From a virus: a DNA stretch of 32,382 nucleotides. Of the stretch, positions 17,556 through 26,125 are shown piece after piece. The notes below the pieces were generated by a model, which was not told the origin of the DNA, did no database searches, and saw nothing but the letters and a program-made list of their open reading frames with translations. The stretch lies in IMG/VR virus record IMGVR_UViG_3300026882_000104; one strand, 5' to 3'. Numbering within the stretch: position 1 is the stretch's first letter; each line of letters opens with the position of its first letter. The translations under genes and the position numbers were made by a program.

Positions 17556-17627
17556 TGGCACGTTTAGCCTACCCCTTGTGGGGTAGTTGCCCGCCCCACA
17601 CCACGAGGAGGTAGTGCCATGTGGGGC
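17556..17627 (-). ncRNA. HDV-like ribozyme fold 2 (canonical)
   Basis: P1 GCCCCAC/GTGGGGC, P2 TGGCAC/GTGCCA, P3 ACC/GGT, L3 TCCTCGT, P1.1 CC/GG, GCAA, P4 CTACCCC/GGGGTAG, J4/2 GCTAA. G1 immediately follows a U6 tract. Confidence 0.9.
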
Positions 17628-21921: not shown

Positions 21922-22203
21922 CTACTCACCCGCCGGCGCGGGGCAAACTGCCCCGCGTGAAAAACCAGCAACCACCATGTTTGCGCTCTCGTAACCCCAA
22001 GGGGTTTTGATATAAAGTTTGTCGCCAACCTGCGGTTTCCTGTGCCCCCGCAAATAATACGTTGCGAAGAATGGGGGGCCTTCGCGGATAATTTGCATAT
22101 TAACCAAGGTTTTATAGAAAAACACCTTGGTCTGGGGCACGCTCTGGGGTTGTGACCCCGTAGCCCCACCGGTGTCGCTATTTGGAGTTTTGTTTTTCTC
22201 CAA
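21922..22203 (-). CDS. Hypothetical protein with N-terminal SDTGGAT motif
   Basis: TTG 22203 after GGTGA SD, directly after ribozyme fold 3. Confidence 0.6.
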   Translation of the reverse strand: MEKNKTPNSDTGGATGSQPQSVPQTKVFFYKTLVNMQIIREGPPFFATYYLRGHRKPQVGDKLYIKTPWGYESANMVVAGFSRGAVCPAPAGE

Positions 22204-22217
22204 GGTTTCTTCACCCG

Positions 22218-22292
22218 TAGACGCGCTTAGCCTGCCTCGAAAGAGGCAGTTGCCCGCCCCACACCTCTTGGAGGTGGCGCCTGTTGTGGGGC
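22218..22292 (-). ncRNA. HDV-like ribozyme fold 3
   Basis: P1 GCCCCAC/GTGGGGC, P2 AGGCGC/GCGTCT, P3 ACC/GGT, L3 TCCAAGA, GG, GCAA, P4 CTGCCTC/GAGGCAG, J4/2 GCTAA. Follows a U tract. Confidence 0.88.
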
Positions 22293-22324
22293 AAGAAAAA
22301 AAGGTAGAGTGTTTGGCTGTGTTT

Positions 22325-22693
22325 TTACTCGTCGCTTTCAAAGAACTCGCTTAAAATTTTGGTTAAACTATTCATCGCCTTCCTGCGTTTCAAAAGCTGT
22401 GAGAATGGGTTGGGTGGCCCACCCCAACGCCTCTCTGCTTCCCTGATTAGTTCCTCTGCTTCACATCCCACGTTGGTTATCAACGTCTTTATGCCCCATG
22501 CGTATTCACCGCTACCATCGTCGAAAGTTGCAATAACGACCTTAGCTGTTTTTGACCGCGCTAGATAGACGTAAATATCGCCCCCACCCCGACAAGGGTA
22601 TGAAAAAGCGGGGTCGAGTTGGGACACACTGAGGGCTTTTTTGCCCGAAGTCCCACCGATGTTGCTATGGGTTTGGGTTTTGGGGTTTGACAT
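22325..22693 (-). CDS. Hypothetical protein, paralog family A copy 2
   Basis: GGTGA SD. FSY..RGGGDIYVY...TFDDGSGEY...NPF. Confidence 0.7.
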   Translation of the reverse strand: MSNPKTQTHSNIGGTSGKKALSVSQLDPAFSYPCRGGGDIYVYLARSKTAKVVIATFDDGSGEYAWGIKTLITNVGCEAEELIREAERRWGGPPNPFSQLLKRRKAMNSLTKILSEFFESDE

Positions 22694-22707
22694 AGGTTTC
22701 TCACCCA

Positions 22708-22782
22708 GTTGGCGCTGTTAGCCTGTGCCAAAGGCACAGTTGCCCACCCCACGCCTAGAGGAGGCCGCGCCAATTGTGGGGT
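22708..22782 (-). ncRNA. HDV-like ribozyme fold 4, abutting the 3' end of a tRNA-like RNA
   Basis: P1 ACCCCAC/GTGGGGT, P2 TTGGCGC/GCGCCAA, P3 GCC/GGC, L3 TCCTCTA, GG, GCAA, P4 CTGTGCC/GGCACAG, J4/2 GCTAA. Confidence 0.88.
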
Positions 22783-22989
22783 GCGCCCACGCGGGGATTC
22801 GAACCCCGCAGGCACCTACCACTCATAAGAGTGGCCCACACTTACTGGACACACGCACATCCACCCATACACACACCGCTTGGGACTCGGACGGTGTGTG
22901 CTGGTGTGGAGACGTGTGTTACGCAAGCGTGGTAAGGTGCTCTCCCGATGCCCTAGGGTATCAGTCCCTTTCCCTTCGGGCGTGGGCAC
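22783..22989 (-). ncRNA. tRNA-like structured RNA (T-arm plus acceptor-like stem, large branched insert); not a canonical tRNA
   Basis: T-arm CGGGG-TTCGAAT-CCCCG followed by CGTGGGC-G, which pairs with GCCCACG at 22987-22981. Internal helices GCACCT/AGGTGC, CCACGCTTGC/GTAAGTGTGG and GCACACACCG/CGGTGTGTGT. Confidence 0.6.
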
Positions 22990-22991
22990 TT

Positions 22992-23404
22992 GAGCCAGAC
23001 CAGACCCCCTCCACCACGAGAAGGTTCCGACCCTGGAGGGGAAAAAAGATTTAGAGTTTGTTGATAATGTTTTCGAGTCTATTCATAGCTGATACATCGT
23101 TGAGCAACTCGTCAAAGGGATTCTTTGAACTAGGCACTGTACGACTATACGTATCCCGCGCTTTCTCGACGAGCTCACGAAAAGCGACGGGATAATCACC
23201 AGTTGTAACAGCCCACGTATACTCGACAAGCTCATCCGTTACTAGCGTTATTAGTAACGCGGTTGTATATTTTGTTTTGGCTGCATAGATGTTTATTTCG
23301 TCTCCTTCCTGAGTAGTGAAGGAGAAAACTGGACGAAGCTTGGGTATGCTAAAGTTTTTCGTGGACATATTTCTCACCTATGGTCGGATTCGCTAGTCTG
23401 GCTC
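22992..23404 (-). ncRNA. Split/circularly permuted HDV-like fold whose halves flank ORF 23051-23377
   Basis: Upstream half 23404-23382: GAGCCAGAC-TA-GCGAA-TCCGACC. Downstream half 23041-22992: CCCCTCC-AG-GGTCGGA-ACC-TTCTCGT-GGT-GGAGGGG-GTCTG-GTCTGGCTC. P2 (7 bp) and P4 (9 bp) between halves are perfectly complementary. Confidence 0.65.
23051..23368 (-). CDS. Hypothetical protein, paralog family A copy 3
   Basis: ATG 23368 after GGTGA (track starts at GTG 23377). FSFTT.EGDEINIY...VEY...NPF. Confidence 0.7.
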   Translation of the reverse strand: MSTKNFSIPKLRPVFSFTTQEGDEINIYAAKTKYTTALLITLVTDELVEYTWAVTTGDYPVAFRELVEKARDTYSRTVPSSKNPFDELLNDVSAMNRLENIINKL

Positions 23405-23605
23405 TATCCCGGCTTGGGTAGAAAAAGCTGATGTGGGGGTCACCTCTTCCTTCTGGAAAGAGTCAACCCCCACTTCCCAGGTCGAAGCCCGTATTTACGG
23501 GCTTCACGTAGGACTTCGCGCAGTTCTCTATCCATTCTCAACACCAGCTTGGGTTTTACCCAAGCCTTCGGGGAGCCATTGACGGAGCTTTTCCACGCCC
23601 CCAGT

Positions 23606-23666
23606 CAGCCGACTCCAAAAAAAAGGGTGGAGTTTCGCCCCCCGGCACAGGGGCTCATCAGGGCTG
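23606..23666 (-). ncRNA. Type I hammerhead ribozyme
   Basis: Stem I CAGCC/GGCTG, core CTGATGA, stem II GCCCC/GGGGC, GAAA, stem III CTCC/GGAG, cleavage triplet GTC (predicted cut after 23611). Confidence 0.85.
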
Positions 23667-24089
23667 TTACGCTAGACTATTGACGTAGTCGAGAACTTGA
23701 CGCAACTCATTTTCAGAAAGGGTCTTAAGTCTCTCCAGGATTTGCTTGACCAATGGATTGGTAACATTACGAACTGCCGGATTGACGTGAGAATGATAGA
23801 AGTGGCTGGCTACTGAAGCGAAGTTTCTACCATCGGTGCTCCACTTACAAATGGAGCACACGTAAAGAGTTACAGTAATGCCGTAGTCTTTGATGGTCAC
23901 TTTTTGAACTGTGAACGCTTTGTTTTTGATGTCATCACTAATATGCGTGCCGTAAAAGTGTCTTACTACGACTTCTTTGTAATTGTTGATGTAGCTGCAT
24001 GCCGAACACTTATACGTGTAGTTTGGTGCCTCGCCCTGCATCTCTACCCATATTTTGGGCAGAGACGTTAATTCAGGTATTTCGGACAT
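23667..24089 (-). CDS. Protein with two C2H2-like zinc fingers
   Basis: CSAC..HFYGTH and CSIC..HFYHSH. ATG 24089 after GGTGA. Confidence 0.75.
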   Translation of the reverse strand: MSEIPELTSLPKIWVEMQGEAPNYTYKCSACSYINNYKEVVVRHFYGTHISDDIKNKAFTVQKVTIKDYGITVTLYVCSICKWSTDGRNFASVASHFYHSHVNPAVRNVTNPLVKQILERLKTLSENELRQVLDYVNSLA

Positions 24090-24102
24090 GTTTTTTTCAC
24101 CT

Positions 24103-24205
24103 GGCCGCTGGGGGCTCTGTGGAGCCCCGTTAGTGCTAGTTAGAGCTCTTCTAATTGGCTCTTCCTTCCGCCCCCCGCCACGTGGAGGCGACCACCATGG
24201 GGGGC
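24103..24205 (-). ncRNA. HDV-like ribozyme fold 5 (variant with extra hairpin before P2 3' strand)
   Basis: P1 GCCCCCC/GGGGGGC, P3 GCC/GGC, L3 TCCACGT, GG, imperfect P4, CTAA, inserted hairpin GGGGCTC/GAGCCCC, weak P2 TGGT/GCCA. Confidence 0.6.
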
Positions 24206-24229
24206 TAGAAAAAAAGGTTAGAATTGGGG

Positions 24230-24553
24230 CTACTGAAGGGTTACTATATACCACTTCGCAGGCACTTGCATCATTTCTTGTTCGGTAAGTACCTTACCTT
24301 CCTCGAGACGTTTAAGAAGTTGGTACACAAGCAGTGTATCTCCTCGTTTCAATGATATGCTAACCCTGTTAACTGGAACATTGACCCCTAGCTGTGTTGT
24401 TATAATTTTAGCCGTTGCCTCGTGACCAATAGCGCTAACGAAACCTTGATTGAGGATGTTTTTAACATCCTCGACGCTAGCCTCGACCACCTTAATAGTG
24501 GTCGGGGGCGTTAGCATTGATAAGGAAAAGGCGTTAGAGATGTAGACTGTCAT
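24230..24553 (-). CDS. DUF1874 / STIV B116 / AFV3-109 family archaeal viral protein
   Basis: YISNAFSLSML, FVSAIGHEATA..LGV.VPVNR..I.L..GD..LVYQL..RLEEG.VL, the characteristic family signature. Confidence 0.9.
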   Translation of the reverse strand: MTVYISNAFSLSMLTPPTTIKVVEASVEDVKNILNQGFVSAIGHEATAKIITTQLGVNVPVNRVSISLKRGDTLLVYQLLKRLEEGKVLTEQEMMQVPAKWYIVTLQ

Positions 24554-24919
24554 TTAGTCTTCACCCTCCGTCAAAAGATTGCCTAGCCACCTTTTCAGCA
24601 TCTCGAATGCGTCGTTGGCCGCAACTGGGGTATGAACCCCACTTGCGGCCTCACTTGCAGAAAAGAATAGCGCTTCCCAGATGTTTGACTCGATAGCTTT
24701 ATCACTGAAACCGCGAACTAACGCTGTTTTAAGGAGCTGACTAACGCTGGCGTGGTCGTAATCGAGGGGTAGACCGAATTGGTCTTCCCCCGGGTGCCAA
24801 CACATGGCGCCACAGGGGAATGGCTGACCACTACTATGGCATGGACAGTCGCATGTTTGGGGCGCGCTATAAGTAGCCCCACCGATGTCTTTACTCGAAA
24901 GGTTTTTATTACTTGACAT
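24554..24919 (-). CDS. Hypothetical protein with N-terminal KDIGGAT motif and a Cys/His cluster
   Basis: ATG 24919 after GGTGAG. CDCPCH..CGAMCWH. Confidence 0.6.
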   Translation of the reverse strand: MSSNKNLSSKDIGGATYSAPQTCDCPCHSSGQPFPCGAMCWHPGEDQFGLPLDYDHASVSQLLKTALVRGFSDKAIESNIWEALFFSASEAASGVHTPVAANDAFEMLKRWLGNLLTEGED

Positions 24920-25000
24920 TTTTCTCACCAAAAGCGGTGGTGCTTGGTGAAGAGCCAAAAGAAGAGCTCTTCGCTAAGCATCGTGATTAGCGTTTTTTTG

Positions 25001-25007
25001 TTATAAA
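25001..25007 (-). promoter_or_regulatory. TATA box at the head of the ribozyme-punctuated transcription unit
   Basis: The - strand reads TTTATAA upstream of the leader of 24554-24919. Confidence 0.5.
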
Positions 25008-25041
25008 TGTCGTCGGGCGCTTTTTTTCTTCCACGCTTCGC

Positions 25042-25167
25042 CAAAGCGTGCGTGCGCGCGCGCTTACGCGTGCGTGCTTACACACACGTGCGTTATCACA
25101 CGTGCGCACAAAAGTGCGCACAACGCACGCGTGTAAACACTTCACACGCGCGCCTTCGCGCGCACGA
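25042..25167. repeat. Alternating purine-pyrimidine tract (CGCG/CACA/GTGC-rich)
   Basis: gcgtgcgtgcgcgcgcgcttacgcgtgcgtgcttacacacacgtgcg...cacacgcgcgccttcgcgcgcacg, compositionally unlike the rest of the window. Confidence 0.8.
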
Positions 25168-25208
25168 TTTGATTCAGCTTTTTGGGATTACATGTTTTTT
25201 CACCTTAC

Positions 25209-25247
25209 GAAAATTGCGTGAAAATGTGATTTTTTCACGCAATTTTC
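25209..25247. repeat. Perfect 16-bp inverted repeat with 7-bp spacer
   Basis: gaaaattgcgtgaaaa-tgtgatt-ttttcacgcaattttc. Confidence 0.85.
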
Positions 25248-25388
25248 AACAAAAAAACGCAAAACAAAAATTTAAGCTTTACGACAAAGAAATAAATTTA
25301 TTACTCCATTACATATCGGTTCCTTTTGTAAAATTTTTAAAATTTTTAAAAAAACAAAAAAGCAAAAAGAAAGGGGAAAGAGGAAGAG

Positions 25389-25404
25389 GAAAAAGAAATA
25401 TAAG
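25389..25404 (+). promoter_or_regulatory. BRE/TATA promoter of the RHH-recombinase operon
   Basis: GAAAAAGAAATATAAG about 21 nt upstream of ATG 25425. Confidence 0.55.
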
Positions 25405-25424
25405 TGGATATCCATTGAAGATTT

Positions 25425-25580
25425 ATGGTTCGTGTAAGTGTGGTTCTTCCCGACGAACTCGATGAAAGGTTCAGAAAGGAAATCATAAGAAGGAAAGGAT
25501 ATAAGAAGGGGTATTACTCGGAGAGTGTGAAGGAGGCGATTGAACTTTGGCTCAACCATGGGTTAAGCCAAAAACAGTAG
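25425..25580 (+). CDS. Ribbon-helix-helix (CopG-like) regulator, 51 aa (missed by the ORF track)
   Basis: Manual translation MVRVSVVLPDELDERFRKEIIRRKGYKKGYYSESVKEAIELWLNHGLSQKQ. Confidence 0.8.
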   Translation: MVRVSVVLPDELDERFRKEIIRRKGYKKGYYSESVKEAIELWLNHGLSQKQ

Positions 25581-26125
25581 AGAACATCCTGACTGAGAGG
25601 GATGTAGTGAGACTGCTGAAGGCGTGCAGGAATAAGAGGGAAGCCTTCGTTGTAGGGGGTCTCGTATTCACCGGGATGAGGGTTTCAGAGTTCATCCACA
25701 TGGATAGGTCGTGGATAAGAGATGGGGCGATTCACATACCGAGGTCCAAGAAGTGTTCGTGTTCAGAATGTGCCAAAAAAGGGGGTATTTGGACACCCAA
25801 GACCCCTAGCAGTATAAGGGTTATTCCCATAGTCCCCGAGATAGAAAGTCTGTTTTCCGAGTTCTTCTCTGAATACAATTCAGTGATGGAACTCATCCCG
25901 AATAGGCAGAAAGCCCACTACATCATAAGGGATGTTGGAAAAAGGATAAACAAGAAGGTCTTTCCCCACTCACTCAGAGGAACCTTTGCTACAATACTTG
26001 CCAAAAAAGGTTTTAATCCCTTTGAGATAAAGGATGTTATGGGCTGGAGCAAGATAGATGTTGCCATGTCGTATATCAACATGGTGGGTGCGTATGTTAA
26101 GGAGGCGTTCAGGCAGAAATGGTAG
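25547..26125 (+). CDS. Tyrosine recombinase/integrase (catalytic domain only)
   Basis: FTGMRVSE (R), TPKT (K), FPHSLRGTFAT (HxxR), MGWS and MSYI (Y). Confidence 0.92.
   Translation: MAQPWVKPKTVENILTERDVVRLLKACRNKREAFVVGGLVFTGMRVSEFIHMDRSWIRDGAIHIPRSKKCSCSECAKKGGIWTPKTPSSIRVIPIVPEIESLFSEFFSEYNSVMELIPNRQKAHYIIRDVGKRINKKVFPHSLRGTFATILAKKGFNPFEIKDVMGWSKIDVAMSYINMVGAYVKEAFRQKW

Follow-up and report, generated by a model that had tools for sequence, protein, structure and literature searches.

Why should a self-cleaving RNA be laid out so that the presumed termination signal of the preceding gene lies inside one of its own loops? The question is raised by a viral DNA of 32,382 nt (IMG/VR record IMGVR_UViG_3300026882_000104; this whole stretch is referred to below as the window), in which the minus strand from 23666 to 23606 forms a complete type I hammerhead with every position of the catalytic core canonical. 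The ribozyme opens at the base that follows the stop codon of a small zinc-finger gene, and a run of eight U residues falls within its stem-loop III. The answer that best accommodates the observations, and which is probably correct, is that this is a genuine type I hammerhead which provides a processing site between cistrons on a polycistronic RNA from a crenarchaeal virus, built around a leaky U-tract terminator and cutting those transcripts that read through it.

A neighbouring gene of the window is Pfam STIV_B116-like and matches proteins of SIFV, betalipothrixviruses and fuselloviruses at 37–44%, and we infer that the source is an uncultured crenarchaeal hot-spring virus, from which follow the host and the terminator rules that would apply to it. 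The zinc-finger gene itself starts at ATG 24089, preceded by the SD sequence GGTGA, and not at GTG 24254, the start of a mechanically called open reading frame of 195 aa that overlaps an HDV-like fold; it is the lengths of the homologues (n = 19, most of them 139–157 aa and the full-length ones 68–96% identical), together with the SD sequence, that point to the ATG. The C2H2 type of zinc finger to which the gene belongs is common in crenarchaeal viruses.

The topology of the ribozyme is that of type I, in which stem I is left open, here with CAGCC as the entry strand and GGCUG as the exit strand, and hairpin loops cap stems II and III (Table 1). The features by which a hammerhead is recognized, namely G12 A13 A14, the A15.1-U16.1 pair, H at position 17 and the G10.1-C11.1 pair that closes stem II, are all in place and all invariant among relatives. 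Position 7, where the relatives do vary, is the one position of the hammerhead core that tolerates any base. The eighth U of the U8 tract pairs with A23628, which leaves the remaining seven in loop III. Cleavage at the predicted site would be expected to give an upstream RNA that ends in a 2',3'-cyclic phosphate and a downstream RNA with a 5'-OH on G23610. There is also a candidate pseudoknot between loop II (23649–23644, UGUGCC) and the 3' tail beyond the ribozyme (23599–23594, GGCGUG), with six pairs that can form in 23 of 23 variants; four of these are G-U pairs and no double change is seen, but two one-sided changes, from G-U to A-U and from G-U to G-C, keep the pairing. For fast cleavage, stem I of a hammerhead must touch loop II, either loop to loop or as a pseudoknot. 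A pseudoknot between stems I and II is used by about 40% of hammerheads (PMC3088659).

Table 1. Features of the hammerhead locus and of the gene string around it. Positions are those of the window; the number of aligned hammerhead variants is 23.
Feature	Position	Strand	Remarks
Zinc-finger gene, 140 aa	23667..24089	-	Two CxxC...HxxxxH (C2H2-type) motifs; weak zf-H2C2_5 match
Stop codon TAA of zinc-finger ORF	23669-23667	-	Base after the stop opens the hammerhead
Stem I, 5' strand, CAGCC	23666-23662	-	Paired in 100% of the 23 variants
Catalytic core C3 U4 G5 A6 U7 G8 A9 (CUGAUGA)	23661-23655	-	Among the 23 variants, change at position 7 alone (U or C)
Stem-loop II	23654-23637	-	Closing pair G10.1-C11.1 (G23654-C23637); 5-6 G-C pairs in total; loop UGUGCC(G)G
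G12 A13 A14	23636-23634	-	Invariant in the 23 variants
A15.1	23633	-	Invariant; pairs with U16.1 (23612)
Stem-loop III	23633-23612	-	A15.1-U16.1 plus CUCCA/UGGAG, 6 pairs; loop CCC plus U7
U8 tract in loop III	23624-23617	-	Sole T-run between the zinc-finger stop and the cut; presumed archaeal termination signal
C17, predicted scissile bond 3' of the base (GUC/G)	23611	-	From the hammerhead consensus; GUC invariant in the 23 variants
Stem I, 3' strand, GGCUG	23610-23606	-	Only portion of the ribozyme that would remain on the downstream RNA
31-aa ORF (MDRELREVLREARKYGLRPGKWGLTLSRRKR)	23440..23535	-	Starts 75 nt after the cut; first cistron of the predicted downstream product
Cassette gene, 105 aa	from ATG 23368	-	SD GGTGA ahead; follows the 31-aa ORF
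tRNA-like RNA	22783-22858		ARAGORN match
HDV-like, next ribozyme downstream of the hammerhead	22708-22782	-	RF02682, 34.6 bits, E 0.0016
HDV-like, 5' side of the zinc-finger gene	24148-24205	-	Partial RF02682 match, 23.5 bits; 3 nt after T7 (24215-24209)
HDV-like	22219-22292		Rfam HDV models, sub-threshold
HDV-like	17556-17627		Rfam HDV models, sub-threshold
HDV-like	16409-16481		Rfam HDV models, sub-threshold

A descriptor made up of three stems, CUGANGA, GAAA and UH has a single match in the window, which is the hammerhead site. When the window was shuffled with its dinucleotides preserved, the descriptor was matched in 1 of 1000 shuffles and in none of the 1000 with all stems of at least five pairs, and the string CTGATGA..CGAAAC by itself would be expected 0.04 times. 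For the isolated 61-nt RNA, the hammerhead secondary structure is the minimum-energy fold at 37, 60, 75 and 85 °C, and at 75 °C it persists in a context of 210 nt; by its thermodynamic z-score the region does not stand out. The Rfam search that had been suggested as a check does not report the site at gathering thresholds, and what it yields is confined to sub-threshold matches of about 20 bits: one to RAGATH-1-hammerhead, in the correct register (19.3 bits, against a gathering threshold of 56.3), and one to Hammerhead_3, in the wrong register (20.2 bits, against 48.5). The gathering thresholds of the hammerhead models mirror the seed sequences of each model and not the requirements of catalysis, and they overlook hammerheads of this sort. 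The type III reading implied by Hammerhead_3 (23631–23678) was considered and rejected, as it needs an AGUC inside the end of the coding region, which is missing from many relatives, and a very poor stem I.

Conservation provides the other main support for the motif. Relatives of the zinc-finger protein are encoded at 50 metagenome loci, and the 41 that continue beyond the stop codon all have a hammerhead directly behind the gene, with the 13 conserved core bases intact throughout and change in the core confined to the free position 7. When the loci are searched with a covariance model of the family, each gives a single copy and no extra ones. The alignment comprises 23 distinct variants, in which stem III varies at pair 15.3/16.3 (U-A in nine, U-G in seven, C-G in seven) and at pair 15.4/16.4 (C-G or U-G) and stem I shows A-U/G-U variation at one pair, while stem II does not vary and loop II is almost invariant. 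Stem I lengthens to 7–8 pairs (GUCAGCC/GGCUGAC) in about half of the variants, and in some stem III is reduced to four pairs, which is short for a thermophile. Within this set of close variants, helix cells are paired in 90–99% of cases, as compared with 33–54% when the partners are slid. Double changes occur at one pair only (U-A/C-G, in seven sequences) and wobble changes at three, and the shuffle control is weakly exceeded, so that the covariation, though real, is thin, as the relatives are close to one another. Stem I is separated from the stop codon by a spacer of unrelated sequence, whose length ranges among relatives from 0 to about 15 nt. The hammerhead block is 81–100% identical, against 64% for the last part of the preceding coding region and approximately 40–50% for the cassette ORF that follows. 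The first-pass annotation had described, on the strength of the letters alone, a complete type I hammerhead next to the stop codon, and both the sequence and its conservation across relatives uphold that description; each of the coordinates it gave proved correct when the minus strand was read again.

The family was found only in metagenome contigs, and IMG/VR yielded no relatives either to a protein-based scan or to an exact 21-nt pattern of the core plus stem II. None of the fetched contigs begins or ends at the predicted cut; all run through it or stop elsewhere. Two stop within the ribozyme, at ..GGGCGAA, and six others do so 64–65 nt (in one case 46 nt) past the cut, within the GGCUUGGG..CCCAAGC hairpin. 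These contig ends near the cut look like assembly breaks. Identity among the relatives falls to 40–50% beyond about 23350, and the six contig ends and this fall, taken together, look like the junction of a conserved block with a swappable cassette.

The U-run that sits within loop III is as constant as the ribozyme around it. It lies 42 nt past the zinc-finger stop, with no T-run earlier, and loop III contains a run of T6–T9 in 23 of 23 variants, whereas the other bases of the loop vary (CCC, CUC, UCC or CUU); a U-tract inside loop III, as noticed at first reading, is conserved across the family. Nine further genes on the minus strand of the window likewise have runs of T6–8, at 0–22 nt past their stops. 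The archaeal termination signal is an oligo-U tract, which acts with aCPSF1/FttA, an enzyme that terminates by cutting the nascent RNA at the U-tract (PMC8716108, PMC11616081), and the U8 tract has the form described for such signals, a run of at least 4–5 T on the coding strand soon after the stop (PMC8716108). Consisting of two U4 units, it corresponds to the strongest terminator class of that study, in which U-tract terminators are leaky, with median efficiencies of 30–55% in M. maripaludis (PMC8716108). In the same organism, terminators internal to operons tune gene ratios (PMC10450193). Past the U-tract come the cut site and the 3' halves of stems III and I, and this geometry bears out the proposal, made at first sight of the sequence, that only transcripts that read through the tract can complete the ribozyme.

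Two other roles for the U8 tract were considered and set aside. As a TATA-like promoter element for a downstream RNA it would be misplaced, as the conserved RNA has its beginning ahead of any start that such an element would direct, and by itself an oligo-T run makes a poor archaeal TATA box. Pairing of the U8 tract with the A-run of the 5' leader (24097–24091) or with GGAAAAG (23593–23587) can be drawn but would be weak, and variation among the relatives lends it no support.

What lies beyond the cut is informative as to whether transcription is meant to end there. The 240 nt past the cut are 85–100% identical among relatives, and nowhere in the locus is conservation higher than immediately behind the cut. 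The 31-aa ORF is open in 21 of 21 relatives, with indels only in multiples of three and a stop codon that is either TGA or TAA; exact look-ups of the ORF in its 31- and 34-aa forms returned no record. No AT-rich, promoter-like stretch was seen in the sequence between 23611 and the next ORF, and the conserved ORF, the cassette gene, the tRNA-like RNA and the ribozymes downstream would therefore be transcribed through T8. These elements need read-through, which argues that the U-tract is not a complete terminator and that the cut is not meant to abolish downstream expression.

Hammerheads are not the only ribozymes in this gene string. The Rfam HDV models give five matches in the window that are below threshold but significant, and four of the five begin 0–3 nt after a run of T6–7, the fifth (22708–22782) following the tRNA-like RNA. 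One of them sits on the 5' side of the zinc-finger gene, just ahead of the SD sequence GGTGA and ATG 24089. HDV-type ribozymes cut at their own 5' edge. The hammerhead cut, 6 nt past its U-run, and the cuts of the four HDV-like folds that follow a U-tract would thus all be found 0–6 nt 3' of such a tract. The relatives keep the order hammerhead..HDV..HDV, with a variable distance of about 830–1520 nt; in the window, the hammerhead and the HDV-like ribozyme that ends at 22782 would bound an RNA of ~830 nt (23610–22783). That a second ribozyme class is present in the same unit had also been anticipated, and it is supported by these matches, relatives likewise having two such matches downstream of the hammerhead.

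A plausible course of events can be drawn from this arrangement. RNA polymerase would make the 5' strand of stem I, the core and stem-loop II and would then arrive at T8, where a fraction of polymerases would halt, as they do at archaeal oligo-U terminators, leaving a short mRNA without the cut site. Polymerases that go on would add a further 11 nt, upon which stems III and I could close and the RNA would be cut after C23611. The upstream product would be the zinc-finger mRNA, with the whole ribozyme retained and an end, carrying the 2',3'-cyclic phosphate, 6 nt past the U-tract; it would bear an HDV-like fold at its 5' end and the hammerhead at its 3' end. The downstream product would begin with the 5'-OH of GGCUGAC, with five nucleotides of the ribozyme, and would consist of a 75-nt leader followed by the 31-aa ORF, the cassette gene and the tRNA-like RNA. 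The 3' ends produced by termination and by cleavage would be 6–13 nt apart, so that end-mapping can separate them. As to why a hammerhead should be used at this junction, the body of a type I hammerhead would stay on the upstream fragment, whereas the HDV-like bodies elsewhere in the gene string would stay on the downstream one, and this asymmetry of the products can explain the preference for a hammerhead over an HDV-like ribozyme. For a type I hammerhead, we see no simpler means of bringing the cut so close behind the U-run than to place the run in loop III.

U-runs in loop III are not confined to this family, although they are not a common property of hammerheads either. In a background sample of 84 type I-like hammerheads from viral contigs, none had a T6 run in stem-loop III. 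A targeted scan retrieved 19 complete type I hammerheads that do have such a run, within the loop in approximately half of them, and several of the 19 abut a stop codon. On four IMG/VR viral contigs (L175:4165, plus strand; L248:7040, minus; L212:2534, minus; L226:3408, plus) a type I hammerhead with a loop III of U6–8 starts at the stop codon, and on L175 and L248 GAGGTGA comes after it, ahead of the next gene. All four are tailed-virus contigs unrelated to the hot-spring virus, and for the large terminase of L248 the most similar proteins are the terminases of cyanophages and pelagiphages. In cellular genomes, almost all of the matches listed for the same pattern were chance matches. The U-run need not mean termination, because a U-rich loop III is also found in a contig with a bacteriophage-like terminase, in a setting where a bare U-run does not terminate; its recurrence in unrelated viruses neither proves nor excludes a role as a terminator.

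A fail-safe terminator was the suggestion of the first-pass annotation. In such a device, ribozyme cutting of read-through RNA would lead to release of the polymerase and the downstream RNA would be a by-product; in its favour, the cut is only 6 nt away from a strong U8 signal. It would have precedents in the co-transcriptional cleavage and the Rnt1/Pac1 back-up termination of eukaryotes, where termination of this cleavage-coupled kind exists (PMC8421224), and the archaeal FttA/aCPSF1 likewise cuts nascent RNA at U-tracts (PMC8716108, PMC11616081). We nevertheless regard this role as improbable, and comparison with relatives does not support it: the supposed by-product begins with the most conserved sequence of the locus, its first 240 nt being 85–100% identical, it encodes a conserved small ORF and goes on to a cassette gene with its SD sequence and to HDV-like ribozymes, there is no promoter-like element to be seen before the next ORF, and all of this needs read-through. 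Self-cleavage alone, moreover, does not release RNA polymerase. The 5'-OH left by a hammerhead is also a poor entry point for exonucleases that depend on a 5'-monophosphate to degrade RNA in the 5'-3' direction. A departure in the other direction would be that essentially every transcript is cut, the U-run being not a terminator but a flexible loop or a site for a U-binding protein (Sm-like, or of the aCPSF1 KH type) that would protect or mark the 3' end. This would fit well with the U-tracts ahead of four HDV-like folds, which must be read through if those ribozymes are to work, and with the U6–8 loops placed after a stop and before an SD sequence in the unrelated contigs L175, L248, L212 and L226, of which L248 has its bacteriophage-like terminase. 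On the other hand, the T-runs in the window are concentrated right after stops, as expected of archaeal terminators, U8 is of the strongest class (PMC8716108), and the absence of a T6 run from all 84 background hammerheads indicates that it is not a common neutral loop. On balance we consider constitutive cutting unlikely, though still a serious contender.

A different kind of proposal concerns the pair of ribozymes that flank the downstream RNA. Cuts by the hammerhead, leaving a 5'-OH at 23610, and by the HDV-like ribozyme at 22782, leaving a 2',3'-cyclic phosphate at 22783, could free the RNA of ~830 nt, which might then be ligated or circularized by an RtcB-type ligase. RtcB joins precisely such 5'-OH and 2',3'-cyclic phosphate ends. 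With a hammerhead upstream and an HDV ribozyme downstream, the excised RNA would be nearly free of ribozyme sequence, and the order of the two is kept in relatives despite the range in distance from ~830 to 1520 nt. Engineered hammerhead-insert-HDV cassettes (the ribozyme-gRNA-ribozyme designs) yield RNAs with exact ends, and they share with this locus a hammerhead on the 5' side, an HDV-type ribozyme on the 3' side and the removal of both ribozyme bodies from the insert; the difference is that here the arrangement is natural, in a DNA virus, with an insert of ~830–1520 nt that carries ORFs and a tRNA-like end. The interval, however, has two ordinary ORFs with SD sequences, and an ordinary linear mRNA explains them. 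Excision with ligation is therefore a poor bet on present evidence, although it can hold alongside intercistronic processing of read-through transcripts, our preferred explanation. That the motif is fortuitous or decayed, and conserved for some other role of the sequence without catalysis, seems highly improbable: the Rfam scores far under threshold and the unremarkable z-score would be consistent with it, but chance occurrence is of the order of 1 in 1000 shuffles or fewer, the 13 core bases are intact in 41 of 41 loci, and the helices are kept through changes.

How does a hammerhead that processes read-through RNA at a leaky terminator compare with those already described? Hammerheads that flank genes in polycistronic RNAs of prophages cleave both in vitro and in vivo (PMC3088659). 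The type I hammerheads of prophages and phages (PMC3088659; CL00010, RF00163) have the same core, three-helix junction and open stem I, lie between co-oriented viral genes, and have been proposed to cut long transcripts into gene-length mRNAs. The present one differs from them in belonging to a crenarchaeal hot-spring virus, in its sub-threshold Rfam score and in its conserved loop III of U6–9, which coincides with a gene-end signal, and its partner ribozymes are HDV-like, in contrast to the further hammerheads or twisters of the prophage and phage operons. In the literature searched, the only archaeal-virus hammerheads found were those of the haloarchaeal viruses HF1/HF2, termed HHphage (PMC3088659; PMC7230728). 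HHphage, too, closely precedes a gene within a polycistronic early transcript, a 5' end of which has been mapped within 3 nt of the cut; it has insertions in its core and was proposed to respond to high salt, whereas here the core is canonical, the stems are G-C-rich as suits heat, and the loop contains a U-tract. The likeness to archaeal oligo-U terminators (PMC8716108, PMC11616081, PMC10450193) lies in the position of the U8 tract soon after the stop and in their leakiness, which leaves downstream genes expressed. As in the host aCPSF1/FttA pathway, formation of the 3' end would involve a cut at the U-tract, but here it is the RNA itself that would cut, giving a cyclic phosphate and a 5'-OH, and the cut would not be coupled to release of the polymerase. 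The layout is thus unusual but of a known ribozyme kind, and it is set apart by a loop III with a conserved U-tract, the tight coupling to the gene-end signal, the crenarchaeal virus and the mixed operon with HDV-like ribozymes.

Intergenic hammerheads in viruses have been known since 2011 and their purpose is still debated. Here, one is tied in fixed geometry to a second and independent signal, the archaeal oligo-U tract, and the same U-tract geometry in four of the five HDV-like ribozymes makes for a testable link between transcription termination and RNA self-cleavage. With this locus, moreover, the range of canonical hammerheads comes to include viruses of thermophilic Crenarchaeota. One might go further and suppose that two unrelated ribozyme classes are placed by rule, with the cut 0–6 nt past the gene-end U-tract, and form a ribozyme system for mRNA 3' ends and operon punctuation which works alongside the U-tract/FttA termination of the host or pre-empts it, the class at each junction being chosen according to which product must lack the ribozyme, and the hammerhead with a U-tract in loop III being a distinct functional subtype that recurs in other viruses. 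Such a generalization is possible, but we put it forward tentatively and would sooner bet against it than for it.

Some further observations concern the RNA downstream of the cut and the wider context of the virus. The segment GGCUCCCCGAAGGCUUGGG (23577–23559, minus strand) can pair either with the local CCCAAGC (23553–23547), as a hairpin, or with the distal CCCAAGCCGGGAUAGAGCC (23418–23400), about 140 nt downstream. The distal pairing of GGCUCCCCGAAGGCUUGGG with CCCAAGCCGGGAUAGAGCC would enclose the 31-aa ORF; all of the bases concerned are invariant, and there is no covariation. The alternative pairing of GGCUCCCCGAAGGCUUGGG could possibly constitute a structural switch or part of a split HDV-like fold. 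INPHARED phage records gave no match either to the DNA of 22000–26000 or to the 594-aa protein. The window is identical with a complete JGI metagenome contig of 32,382 bp. A near-identical contig of 32,535 bp is present in ENA (ERZ27246766 k141_68478), and the contigs of relatives, at 43–44 kb, could supply the full genome context. Finally, the VIPR preprint (bioRxiv 10.64898/2026.04.26.720920) describes viral guide-RNA arrays, some of them interspersed with hammerheads, and may bear on the repeat array at 12405–13273 of the window.
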